Assembly: GCA_903909505.1 (NCBI GenBank)
Contig: CAIVVZ010000485.1
Span: forward strand, 9,347-41,346
Source: an uncultured Desulfobacteraceae bacterium
Lineage (GTDB): Bacteria > Desulfobacterota > Desulfobacteria > Desulfobacterales > Desulfatirhabdiaceae
Direction of reading: 5' to 3'
Length of the DNA stretch: 32,000 bases
Below the pieces are notes generated by a model that searched no databases, was not told the DNA's origin, and saw only the letters and a list, made by a program, of their open reading frames with translations. The first letter of the stretch is position 1. Each line of letters opens with the position of its first letter. The position numbers were made by a program, and so were the translations under genes. This document shows positions 1 to 16,943 of the stretch, piece after piece.

Positions 1-1
1 A

Positions 2-463
2 ACCGACGGCCTTGACCTGCTGCCGGTGGAAACGGTATTAAAAGCGCCCAAAACCACAACCCTGAGCACCTTTGAATGGAAGGGCGTTTCCGGAAAAGGC
101 TATGAAATCCACATGGGACAAACCCGACTCTTTAAAAGAAATCCCCTGTTGACCATTACGGAACGAAACGGACAGGCCTGCAATGAAGCCGACGGCGCCC
201 ATGCCGGTGATTTTTCGGTCATGGGAACCTATGTCCACGGCATCTTTGATACCCCTGGAATTACCCGGCTCTGGCTCGATCAGATCGGTCTTTGCCATGT
301 TCCGGTTTCTGTCGATCAAGGTCCTGTGGAACGGGATCAGGCATATGACCGGCTGGCAGAACATTTTGAAACCCATGTGAATGTTGAGGCCATTTTGTCA
401 ACCCTGAAAGCCGCGACAGGATGCAATATCGGGATTCAGTTTAAGGCTTCGCCGCTCAGATAA
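2..463 (+). CDS. cobQ: Cobyric acid synthase CobQ/CbiP, C-terminal part (5' end upstream of window)
   Basis: The frame is open from the window edge to TAA at 461-463. The tail contains 'GYEIHMGQT' and 'GTYVHGIFD', typical of the CobQ glutamine-amidotransferase-like C-terminal domain. Confidence 0.75.
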   Translation, partial: TDGLDLLPVETVLKAPKTTTLSTFEWKGVSGKGYEIHMGQTRLFKRNPLLTITERNGQACNEADGAHAGDFSVMGTYVHGIFDTPGITRLWLDQIGLCHVPVSVDQGPVERDQAYDRLAEHFETHVNVEAILSTLKAATGCNIGIQFKASPLR

Positions 464-1549: not shown

Positions 1550-4500
1550 ATGAAAACATGTCCCAATACCGCGTGTCATCAGACTCTTGGAGAGACCATC
1601 ACCATTTGCCCGGCCTGCGGATACCGCCTGGATCCGGTGCCTGTCCAGGTGGATGACTATACATTGATTGAAACAATACGCGAGACTTCGACCGGTACTC
1701 TCTACCGCGCACGTCGGAGTGCGGATGACCACGATGTCATGTTACGTCTGTATCCTGCAGAAACAGCGTTTTCACGGGAAAAAGCCGATCAGCTCAACCT
1801 GGAACTGATGGCCGTCAGTGCCCTGTCCCATGATGCCATGGTCCGCCACATCGATCTGCGACAATCACAGGATGGCCGATGGTATCGGGTCAGCGAGTGG
1901 ATTGAAACAGTCATCTGGGGCGATTTGATGGCAGCGCGCTTTTTTCGGGACCCGCGCAACAAAAAAGAATGGATCGGGCTGTTCATCCAGATGACATCGG
2001 CCCTGAACGTTCTTCACAAAAGCGGCCGGATCATGCCGCATGTGTCGCTCAACGATCTGTTACTTTTTAAAGGACCGGTCGATCAATGGAAAATCAAGCT
2101 CGATTACAAGCTTTCCCCCATACCGGCCGATCCCCAACAAGCCCGGCCCGAGCAGCATTTATTTCTGTCCCGGCATCCCGATTTTGCAGCTAAGCAACCG
2201 CTGGATTTCCGAAGCGACATCTGGACCCTGGGAAGACTGATGCTGGAGCTATTGGTCGGAACGGATGAAATCGACGACAGCCAGAAACTACTGGATCAAA
2301 TCTACCAACAATTCGAACCCATTGTTCTGCATCGCAAACTGAGCGGGCTGCTGCGCGCCATGATCGAAGATGATCCGGACAGGCGGACTTCAACCATGGA
2401 AACCGTCATAAAAGCACTTGACGCCATCACCGACGAAGACATCGCCAAATGGAATGAATTTGCCAAAGACCCCACAAAGACGAAAAAACTGGGCCGGAAT
2501 ATCCGGTTTTATGCAATTGCCGCAACCTGTATCGTTATCGGGATTGTCGTTTCCTTGACAATCTACCAGCGATGGCAAACCAACCGGGAACTGGAACGGG
2601 TCGCTGAGGAAGCCACGCAGCAGGCCAGCCGTTCGGTTCAAAAAATAGAGGCAATGATCCAGGGCGAAAAAGGCTATTTTGATCAGGCCATTTCAGAACA
2701 GCTTGCCAGAACGCTGGTTTCGATGAAGGAAATGCTGCCGGAGCAGAAAATAACCACTTTGACGGAGAAGTATCGCCGCTCGGTGGCGTTTGTTCTGGTG
2801 GAGTGTTCATTGGAATTGAGAGGCAAACGAATCCCGGTATCTCAGTCATCCGGGACCGCGTTTCTGGTATCATCCGATGGTTTTCTGCTGACCAATCGCC
2901 ATGTGGCCTGTCCGTGGCTTAAAAACAGCGAACTGGAAAAAGTCATTAAAAAGGCAAACACCGAAAAGGTTCCCATTAAATTGAAGTACAATCACTATGT
3001 GTGGTTTGATGGTGATCAGGCTTTTCGAACAGTGGCGGGTGTCCTTACCGATAATCTGGAAGACCAATACAAGCTTTCAACCGCTTACCGGAGTGACGGC
3101 CAAAATGGCAAGAAAGTCGAACTTCTGGGCGCGATGCAGGAGCCGGTGGAAATATTGGAAAATATGTATGGGCTTCAGGATGATGTAGCCGTTCTCAGGG
3201 TTTATCCCCCGCCTCCGGATGCCGTACCCATACCCTTGGGGGTGCATGAACCCGGCAAAAGCATGTCCAAGGGAACTTCGGTATTTGCTTTGGGCTTCCC
3301 TCATGGACGAAAGAGTATCGAGGGAGATACGGTGGTATCCCGCTGCACCGATGGAACCATTTCTCGTGTGTTTGATAATGTTCTTGCCACGAATGCGGAT
3401 TTACATCCGGGCAACAGCGGCGGTCCGGCGATCGATCTGGATGGGTTTGCCATAGGAATTACATCGGCATGTTTTGTTTCCAGATCAGGATCTAATACCC
3501 CCACGTCTCAAAACTCCATGGGCTGGATTTATCCCATCCAAAATGCCCGGCTTTTCCTGGACAGTGTGCGCGTGGGCAATCCGCAGTGGAAGGGCATGCC
3601 CACCTATACGTTTGAAGCCGCACTCGATAAAGCCCGATCAACAGCACTTGCCGGCAATTCGGCGGCAGCCACGCAAATCATGGACAGTTTAATCGCAGAG
3701 TCTCCCCACCCTGACCTGTATTTCTGGGCCGGTATTCTTTCGGCCAAAGGAGACTATCTTACCGACAGCGGAAAATCTCATCTGAAAAATGCTATAAAGC
3801 TGGAGCCCCGGAATATGCTCCCCAGATTTCTCCTGTACCGCGCGGATTTCCTGGCAGGTGTTCCCGAAACGGACCGAGCCTGTCGCGCGGATCTTGCGGC
3901 CCTGGACTGGCGTCACTCGCAGGATTTGATGCGATACCTGATGCAGATCCTCGAAGGTGGCGTACCGGCCGAGAAAGCCGCCGAAAGCGCGAGCACGCCG
4001 GAGGAAGAGGCGTTCATTCATTGGACGGCCGCATCACTGGATAAATTGCGCGGCAATCAAGCCAATTACCACCGTCACCTGCTGGCGGCCCATGCCGTTG
4101 CGGAACAGGGCTCGCCCCTTGGGTTTCTTATTCAATCCGAACTGAAGCAGACCCATATCCATCCGAAAATTGACAGACAGCCACCCTCCGCGACGGAAAC
4201 TGCCGGTGCCGTTTCTCTTGAGGCTATGCTGAATCAGCTTCTTGAAGAAAACCAACCAACACCGCAACAGCCTGAGGTTTCAAACAGCCGCGCCGCGATG
4301 ATTCAAGAAGCCTTCGATTTTACAACAAAGGGACTTTGGCAAAAAGCTCTTGCCAGGGCAGATCAGTACCTGGCCATGCCAGGTCGGGAATCGGCCAACA
4401 CGCTGGGCATGGGACTGCTGCGATGCCAGTTGCTTTATTTGATCGGAGATATACAAAAGGCGGAAAATGCCCTGAAGGAATACAGCCAACAGATCCATGA

Positions 4501-4750
4501 CCCCTGGTATCGAAGGCTGGCAGACGGCCTGTTGGGCTCGGCGAGTGAAGAATCACTTCGCGCGGAAGCCATGAACAGCCGCGAGAAAACGATCACCCTG
4601 GCAATTGCGCTGGGATTGAAGGCCGATGCGGACGGGGAAAAGTCAAAGGCCATCGAGTATTATAACGACGCACTGGATACCGGTATGATCAACTGGCTGG
4701 AATTCGGGCTTGCCAATGCACGCCGCGAAAACATTCGATCGGCTATTTGA
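1550..4750 (+). CDS. Zn-ribbon / protein-kinase-like (probable pseudokinase) / TM / trypsin-like serine protease / TPR multidomain membrane protein
   Basis: 1066 aa with a GGGAGA RBS. N-terminal CxxxxC...CPAC ribbon. The Hanks-kinase-like region keeps 'SDIWTLGRLMLELLVG' and 'DPDRR', but VAIK is 'VMLRL' and the HRDLKPxN position reads 'IMPHVSLN'. One TM helix, 'FYAIAATCIVIGIVVSLTIY'. Protease triad motifs are 'LTNRHV' (about 2891), 'DDVAVLRV' and 'GNSGGP' (about 3410-3427). The C-terminal ~350 aa are TPR-like. Confidence 0.8.
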   Translation: MKTCPNTACHQTLGETITICPACGYRLDPVPVQVDDYTLIETIRETSTGTLYRARRSADDHDVMLRLYPAETAFSREKADQLNLELMAVSALSHDAMVRHIDLRQSQDGRWYRVSEWIETVIWGDLMAARFFRDPRNKKEWIGLFIQMTSALNVLHKSGRIMPHVSLNDLLLFKGPVDQWKIKLDYKLSPIPADPQQARPEQHLFLSRHPDFAAKQPLDFRSDIWTLGRLMLELLVGTDEIDDSQKLLDQIYQQFEPIVLHRKLSGLLRAMIEDDPDRRTSTMETVIKALDAITDEDIAKWNEFAKDPTKTKKLGRNIRFYAIAATCIVIGIVVSLTIYQRWQTNRELERVAEEATQQASRSVQKIEAMIQGEKGYFDQAISEQLARTLVSMKEMLPEQKITTLTEKYRRSVAFVLVECSLELRGKRIPVSQSSGTAFLVSSDGFLLTNRHVACPWLKNSELEKVIKKANTEKVPIKLKYNHYVWFDGDQAFRTVAGVLTDNLEDQYKLSTAYRSDGQNGKKVELLGAMQEPVEILENMYGLQDDVAVLRVYPPPPDAVPIPLGVHEPGKSMSKGTSVFALGFPHGRKSIEGDTVVSRCTDGTISRVFDNVLATNADLHPGNSGGPAIDLDGFAIGITSACFVSRSGSNTPTSQNSMGWIYPIQNARLFLDSVRVGNPQWKGMPTYTFEAALDKARSTALAGNSAAATQIMDSLIAESPHPDLYFWAGILSAKGDYLTDSGKSHLKNAIKLEPRNMLPRFLLYRADFLAGVPETDRACRADLAALDWRHSQDLMRYLMQILEGGVPAEKAAESASTPEEEAFIHWTAASLDKLRGNQANYHRHLLAAHAVAEQGSPLGFLIQSELKQTHIHPKIDRQPPSATETAGAVSLEAMLNQLLEENQPTPQQPEVSNSRAAMIQEAFDFTTKGLWQKALARADQYLAMPGRESANTLGMGLLRCQLLYLIGDIQKAENALKEYSQQIHDPWYRRLADGLLGSASEESLRAEAMNSREKTITLAIALGLKADADGEKSKAIEYYNDALDTGMINWLEFGLANARRENIRSAI

Positions 4751-4756
4751 TAAAAA

Positions 4757-5098
4757 ATGATAGTCAAACCAGCTCGAACAATGAAAACACACCCTCCTCA
4801 CCCGATTCCCGTCGTCCGTCTGATTGTCCCCGATGACACCGGTCGCGTGCTGATCTTGCGCCGAAACCACATCGGCTATGCGGCCGGTGACTGGTGCCTG
4901 CCGGGCGGCAAAATCGATTACGGCGATACCGTGGAAGAATCCGCCCGCCGGGAGTTGTTTGAAGAAACCGGACTGACCTGCACAGAGATGAAATTCCTTT
5001 TTTACCAGGACAGCCTGCCCATGGAAGCCGAGGAAATGCATTGTATCAACTTCTATATAGAATGCCGGTGCTCGGGAGCCATCACCATGAACGAATAA
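4757..5098 (+). CDS. NUDIX hydrolase, ended by an in-frame TAA; the frame continues to 5227
   Basis: Nudix box 'GGKIDYGDTVEESARRELFEETGL'. After the TAA at 5096-5098 the same frame stays open for 42 more codons ('SSEFEWIRPVDFAKYSLAFRNDEALQWY...') to TAA at 5225-5227. This stretch looks like the normal NUDIX C-terminus. Confidence 0.75.
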   Translation: MIVKPARTMKTHPPHPIPVVRLIVPDDTGRVLILRRNHIGYAAGDWCLPGGKIDYGDTVEESARRELFEETGLTCTEMKFLFYQDSLPMEAEEMHCINFYIECRCSGAITMNE

Positions 5099-5268
5099 TC
5101 CAGTGAATTCGAATGGATACGTCCGGTTGATTTTGCAAAGTATTCACTGGCTTTTCGAAATGACGAAGCTTTGCAGTGGTACGGGCAATACCACAAGGAT
5201 TGGCGATCCGGTGAAGCATATCATTAATAGATCAACGTGGTAATTACCTGCATTATGAGGAGACGAAT

Positions 5269-5652
5269 ATGAATTATTTCTTACTATTTATTTGGATTGT
5301 ATTTATATCGTTTGTTTTCATAAGATTTGGAACTTTGTATGGCGTTTTAAGTATTCTCGGATCATTTATTCTTAACAAAATGTTGATGATGACCCCGTTT
5401 GGAAAAAGAAGAATAGTAATGAGGAAAATATTAAAGGAAGTGAACAGAGAATTCCCAGGAGGAATAATAAATTCAGGTGGGCGACAAATAAGTGTTTGGG
5501 AGGTTGGACCTCCAGATTATGTTTGGACCAGATGGTCGAATCTTGAGCGAGAAATCTTTGAAGAAATAGCCGCAAAACAAAGTCATCAAAGGTCTTATCA
5601 GAAGGCAGCAATTAAGTATCTTAGGAAGAGGAGTAGTGATTCCAATGATTGA
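5269..5652 (+). CDS. Small hypothetical membrane protein in an AT-rich patch
   Basis: 127 aa with a GAGGAG RBS. The N-terminus is hydrophobic (about 2 TM: 'FLLFIWIVFISFVFI', 'GVLSILGSFILNKML') and the tail is basic. I recognise no family. Confidence 0.45.
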   Translation: MNYFLLFIWIVFISFVFIRFGTLYGVLSILGSFILNKMLMMTPFGKRRIVMRKILKEVNREFPGGIINSGGRQISVWEVGPPDYVWTRWSNLEREIFEEIAAKQSHQRSYQKAAIKYLRKRSSDSND

Positions 5653-5770: not shown

Positions 5771-6562
5771 ATGGCTGAACATGCAAAATCTCAAGAACAG
5801 GTGCTGTTGGTTGGTCTCGATGAGAATTCTATTGGTGCTCTTCGAAATACGGCAGCTCGGTATCCGCTATCTGATTGTGGAATTAATAATATACAGGAGT
5901 TTTTTGGTAGCGCGCTGGATCAAAGCTGCTCATTGTTTGCAAACTCTTGTGCGGCTGTGTTCGTTGTGAGTCCGGAAGCGCTCGATTCCAAAGAATTTAG
6001 ACATTGTATTGAGCAGGCAGTAACAGAGGTTCGCCAGCGAATCGACTTTCGATTGCTGATTCTTCTCCAAAGGATAGACCGGGACATGTTTTTTCATACT
6101 GAGGGGTCGGGGGCTAAGACAGTGAAGATAATCATGCGGAATGTACACGTCACCGGATTGCAAGACCCTGAAGACGTAATGCGTGAGTTAGTCAATTATT
6201 CTCGAACGCTACCCTCACGACGAAACATATACTCGGCTCGTCTTCGAAACCTTCGAATCAAAACAGGTATCTTCCATACGTCTCAATGGCTCAATCGTGC
6301 TTTGATTTTTGGTCTATTTATAGCTCTTGCCTTCAGCCCGGGGCCACTGTTTCGCGAAGGTTACCACCTGAGGCAGGCATTGGTGGTTATGTTGTTGATG
6401 GGGCTGGGCGTCGCCAAGGCAATGCCTGCTGTGTTGAGTCGAATCACATGGGGGCGTGGCGCATATTGGAATTCAATACTCGAATTTCGCTTTTGGTGGT
6501 CTGTTGCTACGCTTGTCATTGCTTGCTGGCTGAGCTTCCACAACTCGGCTTACTTTGGCTAA
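5771..6562 (+). CDS. Membrane protein with a divergent TIR-like N-terminal domain and about 3 C-terminal TM helices
   Basis: 263 aa with a GAGGAG RBS. 'AAVFVVSPEALDSKEFRHCIEQAV' followed by 'FRLLILLQRIDRD' matches the beta-D/alpha-D/beta-E pattern of TIR domains (xxVLSpxxxxSxWCxxE). The usual FISY-type first strand is absent. TM helices fall at about 6280-6540. Confidence 0.55.
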   Translation: MAEHAKSQEQVLLVGLDENSIGALRNTAARYPLSDCGINNIQEFFGSALDQSCSLFANSCAAVFVVSPEALDSKEFRHCIEQAVTEVRQRIDFRLLILLQRIDRDMFFHTEGSGAKTVKIIMRNVHVTGLQDPEDVMRELVNYSRTLPSRRNIYSARLRNLRIKTGIFHTSQWLNRALIFGLFIALAFSPGPLFREGYHLRQALVVMLLMGLGVAKAMPAVLSRITWGRGAYWNSILEFRFWWSVATLVIACWLSFHNSAYFG

Positions 6563-6565
6563 CTG

Positions 6566-7759
6566 GTGGTCGGATTCCTTGGCTGCGGGTTATTATCAAT
6601 GATTCGGCGCGAAAATACTAATGCAGCCATTGAACTAAAAAGTCTGAACAATGCTGCAGTCGATCAGTTTTCGCCAACAAATATTTCACGGTCTTGTAAG
6701 GCTGTCGACCATTGGGTAAACGGGGCAGCTCACGCGAGATCACAGTTCTACGAGAACTGTCCTTTGTTGACCCAGCCAGCGAAGAAGAAGTCGGTTTTAA
6801 TCAGTTACTCCCACCACGGTGAATGGGGGCCATCGACGGCCTGCGAACTCTCGCGGTTCTGCGCTCAACATGACATAGACTATTTTATTGATGAACACAC
6901 GATTCCCGAGGGTAGCGCCTGGCCGTTTTGGGTGGAGTTTGCAGGTATTCGCCAATGTGGGCTCTTCGTCTTACTGTTGGATAAATACAGCGCTTCCAGT
7001 GGCTGGACAGCAACAGAAACCGAATTCGCACTTCGTTCTATCTATGAAGTCGGCAGCCCGTATATGGTTGTCGTTTTCGAGCCAAGCTACCTCGAAGACA
7101 ACGATGATCGCAGTGAAACACTGCCGGTTTTTCACGCTATTTGCTCTCGCCTGATCGGCACTTACTACGGTCAAGGGGCCACAGCACTACCTATGTACGC
7201 ACCACAGCCATGTTTCGGTAATAGGGAAAGCCTCGAACACTTGAAGAAGCAAATCCGCGATATGACCTTTGGTACCCCTGGACTTATGGGATATAGTGTA
7301 TTTCGGGTCCTCTGCAGAATCAGCGTCGTAATGGAACACAGTGTTGCCCTGCTAACAGCCTTGGGAATGTTCCTGATCTACTTGAAATTTTTCCAACCAG
7401 ATGTCCTGCTGGCTTATTTATCACCGAACTTGGCCATCGCACTATCGAGCGTTTTTTTGTTCTCCTTCGGCTATCAATTGCGTGTTGGCTGGATTGTCTA
7501 CACAACGAGGTGTCAGACTGCTGAAACTACTCCGCTTAGGCATCGTATTAACGCTATCTGGTCTCCATGTGTCCTTCTGATTTCCCTCCTATCCACCAAT
7601 ATTTTTCAACAATTATCATGGGCTGCACGGATCGCGTCGTTGCTCATGCCTGCTTTTGGTTGGTTTGCAAATCGATTTAGCGCCAGGGAAGACAGACTCG
7701 CCCCTGTCTGGTCGATAGTGTCACATAGCCAAGCGGTTTATGGTCTGAAGAAAAAATAG
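6566..7759 (+). CDS. TIR-domain protein with about 4 C-terminal TM helices
   Basis: 397 aa. 'KKKSVLISYSHHGEWG...DIDYFIDEHTIPEGSAW...FVLLLDKYSASSGWTATETEFAL' has the TIR core motifs, including the conserved Glu. The C-terminal 160 aa are strongly hydrophobic. The start is uncertain: GTG at 6566, or in-frame ATG at 6599. It begins 4 nt after the preceding stop. Confidence 0.75.
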   Translation: MVGFLGCGLLSMIRRENTNAAIELKSLNNAAVDQFSPTNISRSCKAVDHWVNGAAHARSQFYENCPLLTQPAKKKSVLISYSHHGEWGPSTACELSRFCAQHDIDYFIDEHTIPEGSAWPFWVEFAGIRQCGLFVLLLDKYSASSGWTATETEFALRSIYEVGSPYMVVVFEPSYLEDNDDRSETLPVFHAICSRLIGTYYGQGATALPMYAPQPCFGNRESLEHLKKQIRDMTFGTPGLMGYSVFRVLCRISVVMEHSVALLTALGMFLIYLKFFQPDVLLAYLSPNLAIALSSVFLFSFGYQLRVGWIVYTTRCQTAETTPLRHRINAIWSPCVLLISLLSTNIFQQLSWAARIASLLMPAFGWFANRFSAREDRLAPVWSIVSHSQAVYGLKKK

Positions 7760-7998
7760 AAAGTTGGAAGTAAGTTATGTAAGTGCAACAGATATTACGG
7801 CACTCAAAACATGCCTTAATGGTTGGTTTTTCACCGACAAGGCCACCCGGCAGGCATCACCGTATGATATGGATGCTGGAGCCATATGAATTAACAATAG
7901 ATAATCAATTTACTCCTGCTGGATGTCTTATTCTGCAAAGCCTTGCAGTCCGCCGGATGAACAAACAATCTCCAAGTCTATCTAAAAAGGAATCGACC

Positions 7999-10635
7999 AT
8001 GAGCACTTTTATTGATCCAAAATGGCACGATAATCAGATACAACACTTCACCAAGGTCCTGCCCCACTATCAATCTTATGCCCGGTTGATGGAAGACATC
8101 CTTTCCGCTGCCTGTAAGCTCTATGCCCCTTTGGCCATTGTCCAGGCCCGGGCCAAAAACCAGTCCAGTTTCGCGGAGAAGGTAGTGCGCAAAGCTGGCA
8201 AATACCTTGACCCGGTCCACCAACTCACGGATCTGTGCGGCGCCAGGGTGATTACTCAGACCCAGGTCGAGGTGGATCGCATCAGTCAATTTATCCAGGA
8301 CAACTTTATCATCGATGTGGCCAACAGTGTGGACAAGCGAGCAACTCTTGGCGTGTCCGAATTCGGATATCTTTCTGTTCATTACATTATCCAGCTTCCC
8401 AGCCGGGAAGACGGCAAGATCATGGGCGTTCCCATCCCGACCGAGCTGATTACCGGTGGATTCAAATCAGAAATCCAGATCCGGACACTGTTGCAGCATG
8501 CCTGGGCCGGCATCAGCCATGACAGCCTGTACAAGAACATGTTCAAACCGCCCGACCAGTGGCAGCGGGAGATGAACCGTCTGGCTGCCACACTGGAGGA
8601 AGCGGACCAGAGCTTTACCCGCTTTGTCAATCGGCTGGATACCTATGCCGCCAACCACGGCGCCTATTTACCGGCTGAAGAGCGCCAGGCTGAAATCGAC
8701 ACCCTGAAAATGATTCTTGAAAAAGAACCCCAACCTGAGTTGAAACCCCGTCATGCCCTGCGCATCGCCGGGATTTGCCGGGCTGCCGAAAACTGGGCCG
8801 AGGTGGTGGACGTGCTGACCCCTTTTGACAAGGAGGATGATTTCCAACTGCTGCGGGAACTGGGTTATGCGCTTTGCCGGGCGAACAGGCAAAATCCCGG
8901 CGGCGCCGATTACCAAAGGGGGTTGCATTTGCTCGAAAAGGCAGGCAGGCTTGACCCTGCAGATGCCCAGACCCATGACTGTCTGGCCTGGACCTTACGC
9001 AATGGCCGGCAAGCCGAAGACAGTCAAAGAGTCCATGAGCATCTGGCCAGAGCTTACGAACTGCAACCCGCCAACCCCTACTATCTGGCGGCCTATCTGG
9101 AAAGCGAGATTCTTTCCCACCAAACTCTCTCCCATATTTCCCTGATGCGCCCCACCCTCCTGAAAGCCATCGACACCTGCCGCGCCCATGTTGAGGCAAA
9201 TATTGAAATTCCCTGTGCCTGTTTTACCATGGGCCGATTCTACCTGTATCTGAATATGCCGGATGCGGGTTTGCTGGCCTATCTGGACGGGATGCGCCTG
9301 TGCCTCTGTGAACAGGGGCCGGCCCAGTACGAGCTGCTTCAGGCAGAGCTTGATTTCCTTTACCAGTTGGAGCGGATCAAAAATTTGTTGCCCGGCTACG
9401 ATGCGGCGATGCGGCTGTTGACCATCGCCAGATTCATCAAAGCCGGATGCCAGGATGTTGACCAGCAGCGCGCCTGTTTACCGGTTGCGGAAAGAAAAGA
9501 GGCGGCGCCTGAATCAAACACGGCTGAGCTGGACCCAGCTGAGATCCAGCGGCAGGAAAAAGCGCGCAGAAGTTTGATAGCATTGATGACGCGGGACATC
9601 ACGTATCAGACGCCCGTGGTGGCGGTTGCCGGGTCCTGCGCCACCGCCGAGGAAACGCACATGCAACAGTATCAGGACATGCTGATCGAGGCTTTCCGCA
9701 ATTACCAGGGGATCATATTTTCAGGGGGCACCCTGAACGGCATCGGGCGACTGATAGGGAACCTGATGGAGAAAATGCCTCCAGACGCCTCCAAACCGGC
9801 CAGTGCCTTTGCCTATCTGCCCCGATACCTGCCGGCGCATGCCAAGCCGGATGCCCGCTATCACCGGCATATCCACACACATGGCCAGGACTTCAGCCCC
9901 CTGGAACCGCTTCAGATGTGGATCGACCTTCTGGCTTCCGGTATCGATCCCCGGCAGGTGAAACTCCTGGGAATCGGCGGCGGAGCCATTTCGGCCTTTG
10001 AGTATCGTCTTGCCATTACACTGGGTGCGCAGGTCGGCATCATTCAAAACAGCGGTCGCGAGGCTGATGCCCTCTTGATTGATTCAAACTGGAAAGCTGC
10101 TGGCTGTCTGCTGCCCCTTGCCGAAGACCGGATGACCATCAAGTCGTTTATCACCGACCCGAATCCGATGATTGCACCAGACCGGATAGAGGAAATGGCC
10201 ATCAATGTCCATGAAGCCTTTCGCCAGCAGCGGATGAAAGCTCCGCGCAAGGAACCCAATCTCCAGCCCTGGGAGAAACTCTTGCCGGATTTCCAAAATT
10301 CCAACCGGCAGCAGGTTGTCTACGCGGTGGAGATCTTGCGTCAGGCCGGGTTCAACATTGAGGTGGCTTCAACCGGAGAAGATTTTATGTCCCCTGATTT
10401 TACCAAAGATGAAATCGATTTTATGGCCGAGATGGAGCATGGCCGCTGGAATGTGGAGCGTCTCCGGTCCGGCTGGCGCTATGGCCCTGAAAAAGATGAG
10501 GCAAGCAAACTCAGCCCCTATTTGATCCCCTGGAAATATCTCAACGATGAAATCAAAGGATACGATCGCGAGGCGGTGTGCAATTTTCCCGGTTTGCTGA
10601 GGCAGGTCGGGCTGAAAGTCGTACGAAAAAAATAA
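7999..10635 (+). CDS. RelA/SpoT-homolog (RSH) nucleotidyltransferase / TPR-like / SLOG (LOG-like) / RyR-domain fusion protein
   Basis: I place the start at ATG 7999, which has an AAAGGA RBS. The track's 7783 start adds 72 aa with no recognisable motifs. RSH synthetase motifs are all present at about 8140-8540: 'ARAKNQSSFAEK', 'DLCGARVI', 'GYLSVHY', 'EIQIRTLLQHAWAGISHDSLYK'. SLOG/LOG glycine motifs lie at about 9600-10070: 'VVAVAGS', 'IIFSGGTLNGIG', 'GIGGGAISAFEYRLAITLGAQVGII'. The RyR-type repeats lie at about 10180-10620: 'INVHEAFR...' and 'EMEHGRWNVERLRSGWRYGPEKDEASKLSPYLIPWKYLNDEIKGYDREAV'. Confidence 0.8.
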   Translation: MSTFIDPKWHDNQIQHFTKVLPHYQSYARLMEDILSAACKLYAPLAIVQARAKNQSSFAEKVVRKAGKYLDPVHQLTDLCGARVITQTQVEVDRISQFIQDNFIIDVANSVDKRATLGVSEFGYLSVHYIIQLPSREDGKIMGVPIPTELITGGFKSEIQIRTLLQHAWAGISHDSLYKNMFKPPDQWQREMNRLAATLEEADQSFTRFVNRLDTYAANHGAYLPAEERQAEIDTLKMILEKEPQPELKPRHALRIAGICRAAENWAEVVDVLTPFDKEDDFQLLRELGYALCRANRQNPGGADYQRGLHLLEKAGRLDPADAQTHDCLAWTLRNGRQAEDSQRVHEHLARAYELQPANPYYLAAYLESEILSHQTLSHISLMRPTLLKAIDTCRAHVEANIEIPCACFTMGRFYLYLNMPDAGLLAYLDGMRLCLCEQGPAQYELLQAELDFLYQLERIKNLLPGYDAAMRLLTIARFIKAGCQDVDQQRACLPVAERKEAAPESNTAELDPAEIQRQEKARRSLIALMTRDITYQTPVVAVAGSCATAEETHMQQYQDMLIEAFRNYQGIIFSGGTLNGIGRLIGNLMEKMPPDASKPASAFAYLPRYLPAHAKPDARYHRHIHTHGQDFSPLEPLQMWIDLLASGIDPRQVKLLGIGGGAISAFEYRLAITLGAQVGIIQNSGREADALLIDSNWKAAGCLLPLAEDRMTIKSFITDPNPMIAPDRIEEMAINVHEAFRQQRMKAPRKEPNLQPWEKLLPDFQNSNRQQVVYAVEILRQAGFNIEVASTGEDFMSPDFTKDEIDFMAEMEHGRWNVERLRSGWRYGPEKDEASKLSPYLIPWKYLNDEIKGYDREAVCNFPGLLRQVGLKVVRKK

Positions 10636-10657
10636 AACCAGTTAATACTGGTTTTTC
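10634..10657 (+). terminator. Rho-independent terminator
   Basis: AAAACCAGT-TAAT-ACTGGTTTT hairpin followed directly by a T-run. It overlaps the stop codon of the RSH-SLOG-RyR gene. Confidence 0.55.
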
Positions 10658-10789
10658 ATCCCCCCATTTCAAAAGCACGATTTTTTAATGGGATGGTGTA
10701 GTTGCAAATCGTCTATTATTGAATGGCGTGGGTAAGAAACATGTCAAACGAACCACAAAAAAAGGTAAGAATGAAGAAAGGAGAAGATC

Positions 10790-13663
10790 ATGAATCCATT
10801 TTCCTGGCTACGAAGGCGCAAAGATGATAGGCATGACGCCGCCATGGTTACACGGCTATCGCAAGCCATTCACCATGGTGAGTTGGGTGAAATCAGGCGC
10901 CTGCTCAGAGAGGGGGTCCGTCCCGATAGTACCGATGGGTCAGAAAGACTACCGATATGCATCGCGGCGGAGATTGGTAACGCACAGGCTCTGGAACTGC
11001 TCCTGGTAAATATCAGCCCGAATGCACTGGACCATGGGCGTCCCCCCTTGTTCTTCTCTGCAGCACGACTCCATATAGACTGTATCAAGCTTCTCCTCGA
11101 ATCAGGGGCAGACACAAATCTTGGGACTATCCAGCACAAGCATTTGAATCGGGAATTTTCCGAAATAGGCTCAACGCCTTTGCATGCTGCAATGCTAGCA
11201 TATAGCCCTCCATATCGAACTACTATGGACCGCTGGATACCTGAAACCCACTATGTCTCAGATGATATCCTCAGAAGAAAACACCAGTGTATTGAGCTTC
11301 TGCTCAAGGCGGGTTCGAATCCCGCGATTCAGAATGACGAGGGAGTCTCCCCCCTGGAGCTTGCACATGATCACCAGAGAGACTTATTATCAAAACATGC
11401 TGAACAATGCCAAACGGATTGCATCCTTGTCAACCCCCACCGGGGGTGGCCAGTATTCATCGCCAGCCGCCTCAGATCTGCGGGTTTGAAGGCTTTCGGG
11501 ATCTGCTCAGAAACGCCACTTGTTGACTGGAAACATGAATTGCTTGAGCACTGTAGTCCACGAACTTTAATTCTGGCAGAAGGCGATGGGATCGGCGATC
11601 TGTGCAAGCGTCTGACCGGTCAGAGCATGATAGACCTCCGTCACGATCTGAAACCGGGCATCTCAGCCTTCGAACAACTTGAAAACACTTGGAGATTGGT
11701 TTTTCGCTATCTCGATCTCACAGGCGACCAATCAGACTGTCTTTTCGGATTACGAAATCGAGACAAAACGTTCGATATTTTTGTTAGCTATAAAAGCCAA
11801 GATGTAAGAGCTGCCCGCAAGTTGACAGATGCCCTGTTGCAGCTTGGGCTAAGTGTCTGGATGGCTGAATATGAGGTGCTATTGACCGGCCAATTTGCCT
11901 TCCAGTCATCCATAAATGAAGGGTTGGCATTATCGAAACGTGCCGTGATTTTTAGCAATTCACGGTTCTCTGAGTCAGCCTATTGCCAGATGGAGGTCTT
12001 GCTGGCATTGCAGCTCATTCCAAGTTCGAACGTTCTTGAAATCAGGATGCCAGACGAGCGGCATCGTTTCTCGTCGCTGTTTCAGGAAAGGCCAATCCGA
12101 AGGATCGACTGGGACAACACGAGGCCCGATCTATCCGTTAATGCCGTATGTGAGCTTCTCGACCTCCCAGAATTCACCTGCGCTGGCACTGCCAGTGACC
12201 CTGTTGATTCATCTCATATGGAACTGACCTACCGCGACATCTGTGTACACTTGCAGATCGGTAAATGGCAGGCCCAGCCGAGTGAGCTTAATCTTTGGGA
12301 GAACATCTCCACCACCGCTGCAGAATTCACTATTCCATCCACAGACGATTCTCTGACAGGCCGACTGATGATTATGGACGCTGGCTTCGGAATACCAGCA
12401 GCAGAAGATGGCTCCTTAAAATTCCAGATCTCCCTTGACGATGATCGAGAACTCGCCCGGATCACAAGACAGTGTTTCGCTAACCACCACCGCTTCACTG
12501 CGCAGTTCGAATGCAGGGGAGTTCACATCTGGTGTTGGAGAGGACTAATGATGCCTGCGTTCACTTGGTTTCAGTCACCGCTCCTTTTGGAACCGGGTGA
12601 GTTCCGAGATGCGGCAATAGACACTTCATGGGATTTAGTCCGGCAGTACTCGCTATTTGTTGAGCATCCAGTTTCTGGCAGACGACTGGAGTGCCGCTTT
12701 ATTTTTAAGCAGCGAGGTGGGTCGGACGATGCGGATGAACGCTTTCGCAGATTCCTCGAACACTCTGACCAGATGGAGCAGATCGTATCCTCAACAAATT
12801 TGTCTCAACGACAAGAGCTGCCCTCTACAGACTTGGATCGCCCTATACATGTCGTTGAACGAGCAATCCGTAGAGCTATAGCTCTGATGGTTCTTGTTGG
12901 GCGAGCCTCTGATGAAGAGGAATATGCGGCTGCGGACGCTCCTCTCAGAAGTAAACTGACGGAGCGACTTAAGTCCATCGACGCTTGGATAGAGAACGAT
13001 GAGATAGCGCGTTTTCTCTCCCCGAGGGAGAGAAATCATCTATCGGAACCGTTAGGCAGTTGGCCGCCATATGTCCGGTTGGTCATGAAGCGAAAGCAGG
13101 CTCAGGTACCGGTTCTCCTGTGGCATGCGGGGATCGAACAGCGTCCGGCAGTCGCAACACATCTCCTTGCGGATATTTACAAAACAATCCATTTCGGAGT
13201 GATGGACGGATGGCAAATCCTGGTAGACAAAGCCATGGTCGCCACAGCACCTTCGGGAGGTAGTCTGAGCGATTTTGCAGTTGTCTGCATTATGACGATT
13301 GCCCGACTTCGAAACTTCCGCCAAGGAGTGAAGCATAATCCGAGATTTATTGAGGATTTTGAAGAGCATTTGGCGATGCACCAATGGAAGCGGCCGCTTG
13401 ACGCGACCCTGTTTCGGAGGAGCAGCTCCGGCGATCTGTATCTGTCACTGTTCAACCGGCCAATTGAGCAGATGTCGGATTACGAATGCATTATCGTCGA
13501 AGGTTATTCACAAAATCAGCTCATCGCATGTGATAATTTATCGATTCCATCTCCCGGGAGGGATTTCCGATCACAGTATACTGCGGACGACAACCTGAAC
13601 CGAATTCTACCAGCGTTCGCAACTCAGTACGCCGCTGCATGGCCGGAGGAAATGTGGATATAA
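10790..13663 (+). CDS. Ankyrin-repeat / TIR / large uncharacterised C-terminal region protein
   Basis: 957 aa with an AAAGGAG RBS. Ankyrin repeats fall at about 10850-11400 ('GNAQALELLL', 'TPLHAAM', 'IELLLKAGSNPAIQNDEGVSPLELA'). The TIR falls at about 11770-12150 ('FDIFVSYKSQDVRAARKL...SVWMAEYEV...AVIFSNSRFSESAYCQMEVLLAL'). The last ~500 aa have no motifs I recognise. Confidence 0.8.
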   Translation: MNPFSWLRRRKDDRHDAAMVTRLSQAIHHGELGEIRRLLREGVRPDSTDGSERLPICIAAEIGNAQALELLLVNISPNALDHGRPPLFFSAARLHIDCIKLLLESGADTNLGTIQHKHLNREFSEIGSTPLHAAMLAYSPPYRTTMDRWIPETHYVSDDILRRKHQCIELLLKAGSNPAIQNDEGVSPLELAHDHQRDLLSKHAEQCQTDCILVNPHRGWPVFIASRLRSAGLKAFGICSETPLVDWKHELLEHCSPRTLILAEGDGIGDLCKRLTGQSMIDLRHDLKPGISAFEQLENTWRLVFRYLDLTGDQSDCLFGLRNRDKTFDIFVSYKSQDVRAARKLTDALLQLGLSVWMAEYEVLLTGQFAFQSSINEGLALSKRAVIFSNSRFSESAYCQMEVLLALQLIPSSNVLEIRMPDERHRFSSLFQERPIRRIDWDNTRPDLSVNAVCELLDLPEFTCAGTASDPVDSSHMELTYRDICVHLQIGKWQAQPSELNLWENISTTAAEFTIPSTDDSLTGRLMIMDAGFGIPAAEDGSLKFQISLDDDRELARITRQCFANHHRFTAQFECRGVHIWCWRGLMMPAFTWFQSPLLLEPGEFRDAAIDTSWDLVRQYSLFVEHPVSGRRLECRFIFKQRGGSDDADERFRRFLEHSDQMEQIVSSTNLSQRQELPSTDLDRPIHVVERAIRRAIALMVLVGRASDEEEYAAADAPLRSKLTERLKSIDAWIENDEIARFLSPRERNHLSEPLGSWPPYVRLVMKRKQAQVPVLLWHAGIEQRPAVATHLLADIYKTIHFGVMDGWQILVDKAMVATAPSGGSLSDFAVVCIMTIARLRNFRQGVKHNPRFIEDFEEHLAMHQWKRPLDATLFRRSSSGDLYLSLFNRPIEQMSDYECIIVEGYSQNQLIACDNLSIPSPGRDFRSQYTADDNLNRILPAFATQYAAAWPEEMWI

Positions 13664-13888
13664 AACATTGAGACAGAAGTGTGTGGTTGTTTTTGGGGAC
13701 AGGGACACCACCCAAAAGACGGACGCCACGTTTGGAAAAATCACTTCAGAAACTCCTCTTGCCCTTGTGTCACAGATGCCCGAAAACGGGGTCATATTCA
13801 GTGATGGCATCGAATCGGATTTCCTGCAGTTCAATTCGGGAACCACCGCGACCATTGGCGTAGCTGCGAAGAAAGGACACCTGGTCAC

Positions 13889-14449
13889 ATGAAGGAAACA
13901 GGCAAAGCGGGCGGCATAACCTTCTGGCATCAGAAAGCGTACGCCACGGCATATCAGTTCGCCGCCGAGGCGCACAAAGGTCAGTTGCTGCCGGGGAGTG
14001 ATCTGCCGTACATCGTGCATGTCACTCTGGTCGCCATGGAAATCATGGCGTCGCTACAGTTCGAGCGGCAGCACGACGGCGAGCTGGCTATCCAGTGCGC
14101 CCTGCTTCACGATGTGATCGAGGATACGGCGGTTACCTATGAGCAGGTTGCCGAGACCTTTGGGAAGCGGGTGGCAGATGGCGTTCTGGCCCTGAGCAAG
14201 AACAAATGCCTTGAGAAAACAGCGCAGATGGAGGACAGCCTGCTCCGCATCCGGCAGCAAATGCCAGAGATCCGGATGGTCAAGCTGGCCGACCGGATCA
14301 TCAATCTGCAACCACCATTTCCATCCCACTGGAACAAAGAGAAGATCTTCCGATATCGGCAGAAGGCCATCACGATCTACAAGGCGCTGAAGGATGCAAG
14401 CCCATATCTTTCCCTGAGGTTAAGGATGATGATTTCAGCGTGTGGGTAA
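13889..14449 (+). CDS. HD-domain small alarmone hydrolase (SpoT/Mesh1-like (p)ppGpp/(p)ppApp hydrolase domain only)
   Basis: 186 aa. 'AAEAHKGQLLPGSDLPYIVHVTLVA' and 'ALLHDVIEDTAVTYEQVAETFGKRVADGVLALSK' match the RelA/SpoT HD hydrolase motifs (H...HD...ED). Confidence 0.8.
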   Translation: MKETGKAGGITFWHQKAYATAYQFAAEAHKGQLLPGSDLPYIVHVTLVAMEIMASLQFERQHDGELAIQCALLHDVIEDTAVTYEQVAETFGKRVADGVLALSKNKCLEKTAQMEDSLLRIRQQMPEIRMVKLADRIINLQPPFPSHWNKEKIFRYRQKAITIYKALKDASPYLSLRLRMMISACG

Positions 14450-14584: not shown

Positions 14585-14618
14585 CAAATATACACTTATG
14601 AAACATGGAGGTTGTAAG

Positions 14619-14867
14619 ATGAAAATCACTGCAAAAGAATTACGGGGCAAGCCCGGACAGATAATCGAGATGGCATCTCGCGGAACTGAAGTCGTGATAA
14701 CGATTCGCGGGAAAAAGCTTGCCAGAATTATCCCTTACGCAAGCAAAAAAGGAAATTACTCAGATAAGGGAAATGAAGATGAGATATTCGGTTTATGGCA
14801 GAACAGGGAAGATATCGAAAATGTCGATGACTATATGAGGAATATGCGGAAAAGGAGGGCATTTTGA
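14619..14867 (+). CDS. Phd/YefM-family antitoxin
   Basis: Start at ATG 14619, with GGAGG 7 nt upstream. 'MKITAKELRGKPGQIIEMASRGTEVVITIRGKKLARIIPY' is the typical Phd/YefM N-terminal fold motif. The stop overlaps the start of the downstream PIN gene (TTGA). Confidence 0.75.
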   Translation: MKITAKELRGKPGQIIEMASRGTEVVITIRGKKLARIIPYASKKGNYSDKGNEDEIFGLWQNREDIENVDDYMRNMRKRRAF

Positions 14868-15241
14868 TTATTGATACGGATGTTCTCGTCTGGCATTTGC
14901 GCGGGAATGAGAAAGCACGGGATACAATTCACAGCAGCTTTCCTTTCGGCATATCCGTAGTCACCTACATAGAGTTGATTCAGGGTATGAAAGACAAGAA
15001 ACAGATGAACAGCTTCATAAAGCAATTAGCCAAATGGAATATCGAAATCGTTCAAATAAGCGATGATATATCCACTCGGGCCATGATCTACGTGGAACAA
15101 TACCATCACAGCAATTCAATGGAACTGGCCGATGCCTTGATTGCCGCTACCTGTACAAACAAGGCTGAAGTATTGCTGACAGCAAACGATAAACATTACA
15201 AGTTTGTACCAAATATCCAGATCAAGAGATTTATTCCATAA
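14864..15241 (+). CDS. vapC: PIN-domain toxin (VapC family)
   Basis: 125 aa, TTG start. The four PIN acidic positions are present: 'IIDTD', 'YIELIQG', 'LADALIAAT', 'TANDKHY'. Confidence 0.8.
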   Translation: MIIDTDVLVWHLRGNEKARDTIHSSFPFGISVVTYIELIQGMKDKKQMNSFIKQLAKWNIEIVQISDDISTRAMIYVEQYHHSNSMELADALIAATCTNKAEVLLTANDKHYKFVPNIQIKRFIP

Positions 15242-15248
15242 CTCAGCG

Positions 15249-15428
15249 GAGCTTGATTTCCTTTACCAACTGGAACGACTCAAGGATCAGTTGCCCGGTT
15301 ACGATGTGGCGATGCGTCTTTTGACCATCGCCAGATTTATCAAAGGCGAAGGCTTCCCTTGGAGTCGGCAGCGGGACCATTTCGGCCTTCGAGTATCGTC
15401 TGGCCATTACACTGGGTGCGCAGGTCGG
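15249..15428 (+). pseudogene. Collapsed remnant of a second RSH-TPR-SLOG-RyR gene copy
   Basis: 15249-15345 aligns to 9346-9442 (83/97 identical by hand count). 15367-15428 aligns to 9976-10037 (57/62). About 533 nt of the parent gene are replaced by 21 nt, and the two blocks are in different frames. Confidence 0.8.
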
Positions 15429-15506: not shown

Positions 15507-16943
15507 ATGAAAGAACATTGGACAAATGATCACTGGTACGATTTCCTTGACGATCTGAGTTCGAACTCCGGCAGGTACGTGCCAGTCGTCGGGTCCGAAT
15601 TGATGGTGTATCAAGAAGCAGGGAAACGCATTAGTGTTCACCAAAAGTTGGCAAAACGACTGGCTGCTAAACTACGAGTCGATACGAAGGAACTGTCGGA
15701 ACCATTTGGGCTGATTGAAGTTATACGCACTTATCAATTGCGCCGCAAAGATTTCGTTTCCGCCAAGCCTTACTCCTCTATCGTGGAAATTCTTAACGAA
15801 GAAAAATGGCCCATTCCCGAACCTGTGCGCAAACTGGCATCCATTCGGCATTTCAATTTCTTTTTGAACGCCAGTTGGTTGCCGTTTCTTAAGCTCGCGC
15901 TGGAGCAGGAACGGCAATTCCCAGTGTTTGAGGCAAGCAATATCGTGGGGAAGCCGATGCAGGACTTTGATGATGAAAGTATTGGTGTCGGTCTCTGCGT
16001 ATTCAACTTGTTTGGCAGTGCATCGGCATCATCTTCGGCCAATTCAAACACATTTTCGGTCACCGATGATGACTTACTTGAGTGTATGCATCGCTTGCTG
16101 TCCAACCCTCCATCGAGAACGAGTGCCCACCTACTCGAAAAGAACCGTGAGTTACTTGTTTGGGGATGCAGTTTTTCCAGTTGGTTGGCCCGTTTTTTTC
16201 TCTATAGCCTTGTCAGGACAGTTCCCCTCCAAGCCGGCCAGGCGCGCCGCATGCGGGTGGTTGCAGACGGGCGCTGCACCGGTGATGATTCCTTGCAAGC
16301 GTTTTGGACCAGTCTCAATGCTCCCATCTACGACGGAGAATCCGCAGTGGATTTCATCGATGAGCTTTTTGAACGGTGGCACAAGGAGTTTCCCGCCGTA
16401 CCGGACCCACTGGCGGACGCGCCCCAGTCAATCCTCCTGGACCATAATCCTTTTTCGACCGGAGAAATCTTTATCAGTTATGCGCGAAAAGACGCAGAAG
16501 CGGCAAAAGAAATTGCGGCATGCCTCAGAAATAATGGATTATCGGTCTGGTTGGACTTGGACTGCCTTCAGAATGGTGACCTCTACCGCGCCAAAATCCG
16601 GTCCAACATTCAATATTGTTCTTGTTTCATCCCCCTGATCTCCTCTGAAGCCATTGGAAATGTCGTGGAACTCGGCTTCATGTACAAAGAGGAATGGCTT
16701 TTTGCCAAGGAGCAGGCCGAGTTGAGGCGTGATGGCGGCATGGCGCTTAGCGAATTCATCCTGCCGGTCTGCATCGATCCGAGTATTGATCTCTACGATC
16801 CTCGACTGCCCGACTTTATCCGGGAGCGGCACATCGAGTCATGGGCGGACGGCCCCCCGTCTTCGTGGACCGGGCGAGTGCGAGAGGCCCGCAAGCAATT
16901 TGCAAGAGCAAAAAAGGGGCAACCAAGAAAGGAACAACAATGA
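15507..16943 (+). CDS. C-terminal TIR-domain protein with a possibly degenerate SIR2-like N-terminal region
   Basis: 478 aa. The TIR falls at about 16460-16850: 'GEIFISYARKDAEAAKEIAACLRNNGLSVWLDLDCL...CFIPLISSEAI...YKEEWLFA'. The N-terminal layout ('YVPVVGSEL', 'VFNLFGSAS', 'LLVWGCSFSSW') resembles SIR2_2 strand/loop spacing but lacks the usual His. The stop overlaps the next gene's start (ATGA). Confidence 0.7.
   Translation: MKEHWTNDHWYDFLDDLSSNSGRYVPVVGSELMVYQEAGKRISVHQKLAKRLAAKLRVDTKELSEPFGLIEVIRTYQLRRKDFVSAKPYSSIVEILNEEKWPIPEPVRKLASIRHFNFFLNASWLPFLKLALEQERQFPVFEASNIVGKPMQDFDDESIGVGLCVFNLFGSASASSSANSNTFSVTDDDLLECMHRLLSNPPSRTSAHLLEKNRELLVWGCSFSSWLARFFLYSLVRTVPLQAGQARRMRVVADGRCTGDDSLQAFWTSLNAPIYDGESAVDFIDELFERWHKEFPAVPDPLADAPQSILLDHNPFSTGEIFISYARKDAEAAKEIAACLRNNGLSVWLDLDCLQNGDLYRAKIRSNIQYCSCFIPLISSEAIGNVVELGFMYKEEWLFAKEQAELRRDGGMALSEFILPVCIDPSIDLYDPRLPDFIRERHIESWADGPPSSWTGRVREARKQFARAKKGQPRKEQQ

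Follow-up and report, generated by a model that had tools for sequence, protein, structure and literature searches.

A putative gated RelA/SpoT enzyme carrying SLOG and RyR folds, and its NUDIX partner, in a patchwork conflict island of an uncultured Desulfobacteraceae bacterium

Do five neighbouring genes of an uncultured Desulfobacteraceae bacterium form a single nucleotide-signalling defence system, or is the conserved unit a different one? The genes lie between positions 5,771 and 14,449 of a 32,000-nucleotide stretch of contig CAIVVZ010000485.1, the whole of which was analysed here and is referred to as the window. An initial annotation read them as two TIR-transmembrane (TIR-TM) genes (genes 1 and 2), a RelA/SpoT-TPR-SLOG-RyR gene (gene 3), an ankyrin-TIR gene (gene 4) and a stand-alone small alarmone hydrolase (SAH; gene 5), and proposed that they act together. 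The five open reading frames (ORFs) are indeed found on the + strand where that annotation placed them. Our analyses indicate that this stretch belongs to a conflict (defence) island assembled as a patchwork and does not make up a five-gene operon. At its core is the RelA/SpoT (RSH)-SLOG-RyR protein of gene 3, a putative gated enzyme in which an RSH domain whose catalytic motifs are intact is joined to predicted sensor folds. A small NUDIX gene at 4757-5098 (or to 5227), overlooked at first, is the conserved partner of gene 3, and in the window the core is enclosed by lineage-specific cargo. The features of the core are the following.

4757..5227, + strand: NUDIX hydrolase gene, the conserved partner of the family, with an in-frame TAA at 5096-5098 (Pfam NUDIX, 64.5 bits); outside the coordinates of the initial annotation
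7999..10635, + strand: core gene 3, encoding an 878-aa protein with a RelA/SpoT synthetase, a TPR/helical linker, a TRPM-type SLOG (LSDAT) domain and an RyR (R12) domain (Pfam, homologues, AlphaFold2 (AF2), Foldseek)
7999..8658, + strand: RelA/SpoT nucleotide pyrophosphokinase domain, similar to small alarmone synthetases (SAS), with intact catalytic motifs (alignment A1, PDB matches)
8674..9588, + strand: all-helical TPR-like linker (DSSP of the model, Pfam in homologues, Foldseek)
9574..10185, + strand: SLOG domain of the LSDAT (TRPM MHR1/2) type, a predicted nucleotide sensor (AF2, PDB matches, glycine motifs)
10177..10632, + strand: RyR (R12-like) domain, a predicted second nucleotide sensor (Pfam, sequence and Foldseek matches)

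Gene 3 probably starts at the ATG at 7999, because the resulting 878 aa agree with P0001 in the database and alignments to homologues begin within residues 1-5. Pfam recognizes both ends of the protein directly, with RelA_SpoT at 55.6 bits and RyR at 54 bits (RyR cut-off 27.4). The RSH motifs RxKxxxSxxxK, DxxGxR, GYxSxH and ExQxRT line up with those of RelQ and are invariant across the 32 diverse homologues of alignment A1, including R51/K53/S57/K61, D78/G81, Y124/H128 and E158/Q160/T163/H167. The best PDB matches of the domain are RelQ/RelP (2be3/3l9d/5ded, E 6e-8). The catalytic residues of the nucleotidyltransferase, which the initial annotation called apparently active, are thereby all in place. 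The full-length AF2 model (pLDDT 85) was matched by Foldseek to RelQ/SAS1, RyR3 Repeat12 and TPR proteins. Helices occupy residues 226-528 according to DSSP; this linker has TPR Pfam families in several homologues, and Foldseek relates it to the TPR regions of SPY/OGT.

The SLOG domain, a type reportedly defined (as SLOG/LSDAT) by Burroughs et al. in 2015 in NAR, scores only 20.1 bits against LSDAT_prok in gene 3 itself, under the Pfam cut-off of 25.4. The assignment holds despite this score because PF18171 is carried by 39 of the 120 homologues listed, the glycine motifs SGGT..G and GGG..A..E are invariant in the family, and the model is TRPM-like. When modelled alone (pLDDT 93.8), nearly all of its top PDB matches are TRPM MHR1/2 regions; the matches comprise TRPM4, TRPM2 bound to ADP-ribose (ADPR), TRPM8/3/5/7 and a LOG-like Moco carrier protein (TMq about 0.6). 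The RyR region resembles the RyR2 repeats in sequence (E 1e-20), and its Foldseek matches include RyR3 Repeat12 with AMP-PCP/ADP and an RyR chimera of B. thetaiotaomicron (Bt-RyR). Thus, the TPR, SLOG and RyR assignments of the initial annotation are all borne out. In phage RyDEP proteins, RyR domains bind or cleave 2'/3' cyclic ADP-ribose (cADPR) via H75, W78, H100 and D117 (PMC13232231). Three residues of the gene 3 family, H814 (invariant), W817 (near-invariant) and D856 (invariant), appear to match the RyDEP ligand residues in spacing.

Gene 3 has 678 full-length homologues. In a scan with one genome per species, full-length relatives were found in at least 591 genomes from many bacterial phyla and archaea, a patchy distribution that amounts to roughly 0.3% of species. 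Neighbourhoods were compared in 85 loci, 80 of them from species genomes with a gene 3 homologue and five from close relatives (63-80% identity). A NUDIX gene is present in 49 of the 80 loci and adjoins the RSH gene in 40, on the same strand in 39 of these (28 directly upstream and 11 directly downstream), often with a gap of <130 nt. It is kept in all five close-relative loci.

Three Bacteroidota loci without NUDIX (L037, L043 and L050) have an HD/SAH-like gene 4-40 nt upstream of the RSH gene; HD_4 accounts for 3 of 68 upstream neighbours of the family. Given that this gene sits exactly where NUDIX lies elsewhere, the exchange suggests that NUDIX and SAH perform one job, for which hydrolysis of the RSH product is the most economical candidate. 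One of these loci carries two tandem full-length RSH-SLOG-RyR paralogues of 872 and 862 aa behind its HD/SAH-like gene (L037:9947-15166). In a Thermoplasmatota (archaeal) locus, genes for an HD hydrolase, a NUDIX and a TIR protein stand side by side with one for a shorter member of the RSH family (L071:8795-13502), and this is the nearest match to the domain set of the window.

The NUDIX gene of the window is interrupted. Six homologues share an invariant Glu where the window has the TAA at 5096-5098. Beyond this stop, another 42 codons of conserved sequence follow in the same frame, up to 5227; the stop arose by a recent nonsense mutation or is an error of the assembly. Compared with the Nudix box GX5EX7REUXEEXGU, Glu7 is replaced by Asp and REx2EE is intact; the ORFs of the homologues are uninterrupted. 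A proline 15 residues after the box is conserved; as a lead only, such a proline marks ADP-ribose pyrophosphatases. The interval between NUDIX and RSH gene is a variable cargo slot because its contents differ among loci: a 27-nt gap in L085, an nSTAND1-FGE-sulfatase gene in L081, and in the window a low-GC stretch followed by the TIR-TM gene. The low-GC stretch (0.41; 5269-5652) holds a 127-aa ORF (orf127) with a hydrophobic N-terminus and no family match.

With an iterated hidden Markov model search, 28 of the 80 loci yielded a total of 34 TIR proteins, each of which Pfam confirmed as TIR_2. Their fusion partners are STAND NTPases and TPR, WD40 or FGE-sulfatase domains. Neighbouring TIR proteins include a TIR-FGE protein in L001 and a TIR-TPR protein in L085. 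TIR genes make up 11 of 144 genes directly adjacent to the RSH gene versus 12 of 566 genes at least three positions away (odds ratio 3.8, p 0.002). Adjacency, seen in about 12-14 of the 80 loci, is enriched and not the rule.

The reading that we consider best is that of a RelA/SpoT effector gated by an ADPR-derived signal and reset by a hydrolase. Upon infection, a neighbouring TIR sensor would turn NAD+ into such a signal, and the RyR and/or SLOG domain would bind it, freeing the RSH domain from autoinhibition. The freed domain would then pyrophosphorylate a purine nucleotide or tRNA 3' ends, and growth would stop. NUDIX (or SAH) would clear the basal product, or the ligand, and in this way set the threshold and reset the switch. 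The initial annotation had drawn a similar line, from a TIR-made signal through SLOG or RyR to the RSH domain with SAH as the reset. This does not stand for the five genes that it named, and it gains indirect support at the level of the family from TIR enrichment, the HD gene in the NUDIX slot and the RyR precedent. In our judgement the composite has about an even chance of being right. Tentatively, the family as a whole may be an RSH effector that is gated by a TIR/ADPR signal and switched off by Nudix or SAH. It joins TRPM MHR1/2 SLOG and RyR R12, two nucleotide-sensor modules otherwise known from calcium channels of animals, to an alarmone-type pyrophosphokinase.

Several observations weigh against this gated-effector model. 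There is no TIR within 10 kb in 52 of the 80 loci, so TIR input cannot be obligatory in cis, and the association of TIR with the family could reflect shared island residence. The TIR genes of the window (1-2 and 4) are not co-conserved with the RSH gene across the 85 loci. The position of the phosphate-binding His of RyDEP (H100) appears, by spacing and not by direct alignment, to be a Ser in the RSH-SLOG-RyR family (Ser839). The NUDIX is MutT/NUDT1-like only generically (PDB and NCBIfam, where no cut-off was reached). Finally, the acceptor substrate of the RSH domain is not readable from sequence.

The alternative that survives best is a self-contained toxin and antidote pair, in which SLOG and RyR read the adenine nucleotides of the cell (ATP, ADP, ADPR and the state of NAD+ breakdown), TIR is a mere neighbour, and NUDIX or SAH detoxifies the RSH product. 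It would account for NUDIX adjacency being the sole majority association, for the many loci without a nearby TIR and for the interchange of NUDIX and HD in one slot, which fits product hydrolysis; in addition, PDB entries show ATP bound to the SLOG domain of TRPM4 and ATP/ADP bound to RyR3 R12. We nevertheless consider it unlikely, if well short of negligible, since TIR is enriched specifically in the adjacent position and RyR-domain proteins have nanomolar affinity for cADPR isomers (PMC13232231).

Alternatively, the RSH domain could be a signal generator whose messenger is read by nearby RyR or SLOG proteins (AAA-RyR, TM-TrkA_N-RyR, SLOG/SLATT) and degraded by NUDIX or SAH. The window encodes a second RyR-domain protein (21912-24563), further ones occur in 8 of the 80 loci, and TrkA_N and SLATT_1 are among the neighbours of the family. 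We give this account little credence: such RyR/SLOG neighbours are a minority, the presence of RyR and SLOG in the same polypeptide as RSH is a better fit to cis-regulation, and we know of no RyR or SLOG domain that binds 3'-pyrophosphorylated nucleotides. Among these neighbours, TrkA_N-like membrane proteins with a C-terminal RyR adjoin RSH family genes in L066 (7864-9780), L073, L042, L006 and others, and SLATT_1 proteins with a SLOG-like N-terminus occur near the family (e.g., L009:8166-9761).

The proposal with which we began, that genes 1 to 5 (TIR-TM twice, RSH-SLOG-RyR, Ank-TIR and SAH) are one dedicated, co-evolved system, is largely refuted, and we regard it as very improbable. Besides gene 3, it involves the following features.

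5771..7759, + strand: one gene (N-domain of no recognized family, TM, TIR_2, TM), split by an in-frame TAA at 6560-6562 (same frame, fused homologue P0141)
10634..10655, + strand: hairpin and T-run over the stop codon of gene 3, with few G-C pairs, a possible weak terminator before gene 4
10790..13663, + strand: gene 4, ankyrin, TIR_2 and a 500-aa C-terminal region of no recognized family (Pfam Ank_2 49 bits, TIR_2 48.8 bits)
13889..14449, + strand: gene 5, small alarmone hydrolase (Pfam HD_4 47.5 bits, cut-off 27.2)

In favour of such a system are the shared strand, the close spacing, the complementary functions of the domains and the similar domain set of the archaeal locus L071. With gene 3 starting at ATG 7999, the first description of the gaps as 239, 154 and 225 nt is correct. 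However, genes 1 and 2 are one gene, given that they share a reading frame, are parted by a single stop (the TAA at 6560-6562) plus one codon, and are both spanned by the 693-aa P0141. In an exhaustive search of representative sequences, P0141 matched gene 1 with 34% identity (residues 3-268) and gene 2 with 39% (267-691). The description "TIR-TM x2" must be revised accordingly, also because TIR_2 (30.6 bits, just over the cut-off, with the candidate catalytic Glu aligned) is confined to the gene 2 part. A TIR domain in gene 1 was considered and rejected, as its N-terminal domain has no Pfam match, no BLAST similarity to gene 2 and a probability of <1% in hhalign against TIR alignments. The TAA is a nonsense mutation or an assembly error. 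Recoding of the two in-frame stops, in the NUDIX and TIR-TM genes, was rejected because TAA ends genes 3, 4, 5 and others; the two stops are 1.5 kb apart.

Conservation also speaks against the five-gene system, and a lack of co-conservation is what the initial annotation itself had named as grounds for refutation. Genes 1, 2 and 4 had no tblastn match in the 80 loci or the five close-relative loci (0 of 85), and gene 2 matched only itself in a word-indexed homologue search. The TIR-TM gene is a variable insert between NUDIX and RSH gene. Gene 5 has a homologue by tblastn in 2 of the 80 loci, adjacent in neither, and in none of the five close-relative loci. Relatives of both gene 4 and gene 5 have other neighbourhoods. 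The ankyrin-TIR reading of gene 4 was correct, and its candidate catalytic Glu is aligned, yet a search of 5.8 billion proteins gave just four full-length homologues. In L086, one of these has a DUF4062-WD40 protein on one side and an AAA_21/DUF4276 pair on the other, and neither RSH nor SAH is present. Gene 4 is rare and independently mobile, and it may be a sensor that produces a signal. Gene 5 is the alarmone hydrolase that it was said to be, aligning nearly full length with the solved SAHs 6yvc/6z3n/6z3o (E 9e-29), including the LLHDVIEDT motif. Its closest relative (78% identity), the only close one found in metagenomes, is located beside a WD40 protein, with no RSH on its 9.4-kb contig; the ORF of that relative may extend about 200 residues upstream, where there is no family match (L089:7215-8411). 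In the window, gene 5 is tied to the RSH gene by proximity alone. The ankyrin-TIR or the SAH could plausibly feed or reset the core.

The DNA between the genes also argues against one operon. The hairpin at 10634-10655 is only suggestive as a terminator; it is the exception in a promoter and terminator scan whose counts otherwise equalled or came close to those expected from shuffled sequence. Between genes 3 and 4, the spacer (10652-10778) is about 74% identical to the end of an ABC-transporter gene in L081 (4201-4329) and is a leftover of an ancestral gene block; the close relatives also share an ABC-unknown-vWA block. Such gene remnants in the spacers point to recent rearrangement.

That gene 3 is a housekeeping or stress alarmone synthetase, a variant of the stringent response that lies by chance in a variable region, is barely credible: its best PDB matches are the housekeeping RelQ/RelP, but its distribution is patchy, its neighbourhoods are dominated by STAND, TIR, WD40, trypsin and toxin-antitoxin genes, and its closest RSH-domain relatives on mobile elements, one from a 3.5-kb plasmid and one from a phage-plasmid, are single-gene proteins.

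Plasmid and phage collections contained no full-length family member, giving matches to the RSH domain only. The closest of these relatives (L091:436-1572 and L092:3881-4954) are single proteins, about 360-380 aa long, that match the PADLOC candidate PDC-S33 weakly. One is encoded by a ColE1-type plasmid of Klebsiella; the gene for the other is flanked by terminase and HNH genes on a Bacteroides phage-plasmid.

The remaining features of the island include one protein that is co-conserved with the core in close relatives.

1550..4750, + strand: protein with a Zn-ribbon, a (pseudo)kinase, a TM segment, a trypsin-like protease and TPR (Pfam); co-conserved with the RSH gene in close relatives
15246..15428, + strand: two fragments of a decayed second RSH-SLOG copy, after a Phd/VapC pair (84% and 90% identity)
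15507..16943, + strand: third TIR protein, 478 aa, with a weak SIR2-like N-terminus and TIR_2 (Pfam, 57.1 bits)
about 16937-20869: nSTAND1-TPR NTPase (Pfam nSTAND1 103 bits), whose likely start overlaps the end of the TIR gene
21912..24563, + strand: 883-aa MoxR-like AAA+ ATPase with a C-terminal RyR (Pfam RyR 51 bits, bpMoxR 28 bits)
25239-28928: 1229-aa NPHP3_N-WD40 protein

Homologues of the protease protein (45-71% identical) adjoin the RSH gene in L001 and L081-L085. The fragments at 15246-15428 match gene 3 nt 1345-1447 (84%) and 1968-2039 (90%). Homologues of the 478-aa TIR and nSTAND1-TPR proteins are paired in L022, 7 kb from an RSH gene, and DUF4062 and STAND NTPases recur among the downstream neighbours of the family. 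The C-terminus of the AAA+ ATPase resembles the RyR region of gene 3. In the NPHP3_N-WD40 protein, the WD40 region contains tandem 126-nt repeats with about 80% identity (27569-28582). At the left edge of the island, an ORF of the helix-turn-helix (HTH)/XRE type overlaps a small ORF in a toxin-antitoxin-like arrangement (456-1056, - strand), and a Phd-like antitoxin with a PIN (VapC) toxin follows the SAH gene (14598-15241, + strand). A 158-aa ORF at 20950-21426 matches only the dimerisation domain of M20 peptidases and is probably a gene fragment.

From the perspective of immune signalling, gating by ADPR would add an alarmone- or tRNA-pyrophosphorylating enzyme to the outputs of TIR immunity, and it would link Thoeris-type signalling to toxSAS and other alarmone toxins, fields that have been studied apart. 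The RSH domain would then represent a new effector class for TIR signalling. The family would also show, within bacteria, SLOG, R12 and Nudix modules operating together in ADPR/cADPR recognition, with hints as to the ancestry of ADPR gating in TRPM2 and the disputed link between cADPR and RyR. A direct action of cADPR-type molecules on RyR has long been in question. A preprint of May 2026 reports that viral R12 domains bind cADPR isomers. For the study of ligand recognition, the family provides a simple bacterial protein with a TRPM-type SLOG and an RyR R12 side by side.

How does this unit compare with known systems? The initial annotation knew of no characterized system with such a gene set, and our searches agree. 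PADLOC gave weak domain-level matches only in the window (PDC-S33 on the RSH, PDC-S66/ThsB-like on the TIR), nothing reached a cut-off in NCBIfam, and neither collection has a model for the family. We found no description of the RSH-SLOG-RyR family in the literature searched, and an earlier computational notice of it is possible.

The likeness to Thoeris lies in a SLOG sensor fused to a putative growth-arrest enzyme, in a TIR with a candidate catalytic Glu nearby, and in the logic of an ADPR-derived messenger; in the window, the TIR_2 domains of gene 2, gene 4 and the 478-aa protein all score above the Pfam cut-off. In contrast, the effector of the family is a RelA/SpoT pyrophosphokinase rather than SIR2, a pore or a protease, and its SLOG is of the TRPM (LSDAT) type rather than the ThsA type and is joined by a second sensor, RyR. 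The majority partner is NUDIX, while the TIR partners are large STAND/TPR/WD40 fusions in about a third of the loci, and the pairing of TIR and effector in an operon is not conserved. A survey of Thoeris types I-XI (December 2025) includes no RelA/SpoT, RyR or Nudix component (10.64898/2025.12.03.692087).

Like the toxSAS systems (FaRel with the SAH ATfaRel, FaRel2, PhRel), the family has an RSH synthetase as a putative growth-arrest enzyme with a hydrolase gene adjacent, in a type IV-like arrangement, and the HD/SAH partner of some family loci belongs to the enzyme class of ATfaRel. SAHs neutralize toxSAS enzymes and reverse tRNA pyrophosphorylation (PMC7229694; 10.1101/2021.04.30.441581). 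As in CapRel, the RSH domain is followed, within one polypeptide, by a C-terminal region for regulation or sensing. However, the family protein has 878 aa and four domains, whereas toxSAS and CapRel proteins have 200-400 aa, and it is not a small single-domain toxin. Its sensors are nucleotide-binding folds, unlike the protein-binding antitoxin domain. Members of the family are tightly paired too, though the partner is NUDIX or, in three loci, HD, and a NUDIX partner is unreported for toxSAS in the literature searched. RyR, TPR and Nudix go unmentioned in Jimmy et al. 2020.

The TRPM2 channel and the chanzyme share with the family the SLOG subtype, as judged by fold, and its combination with a Nudix hydrolase. 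ADPR binds the SLOG domain of TRPM2, as is also seen for MHR1/2 in PDB entries among the matches of our SLOG model, and the Nudix domain of the chanzyme hydrolyses ADPR. The output of TRPM2 is an ion channel with a fused Nudix (NUDT9-H), whereas the family has an RSH enzyme and a separate MutT-like Nudix. With RyDEP, the family has in common Pfam PF02026 and the apparent conservation of the ligand-contact H..W and D. RyDEP proteins are stand-alone viral anti-defence glycosidases or sponges; the RyR of the family is C-terminal in a host multidomain enzyme and a putative receptor.

The island itself resembles the NTP-dependent conflict systems described by Kaur, Burroughs, Iyer and Aravind in 2020 (PMC7159879), given its nSTAND1-TPR, NPHP3_N-WD40, MoxR-like AAA, trypsin-like protease and TIR proteins, and the FGE-sulfatase and vWA proteins in its relatives. 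RelA nucleotidyltransferase domains appear there as rare signalling modules (PMC7159879). The unit of RSH-TPR-SLOG-RyR and NUDIX is undescribed in that work, and the family extends far beyond multicellular lineages, including into archaea. Taken together, the RSH-SLOG-RyR module is one that would work like Thoeris and like toxSAS/SAH or CapRel, and it is a member of neither, because its TIR pairing is not conserved, its protein is not a small single-domain SAS, and its majority partner is a NUDIX hydrolase.

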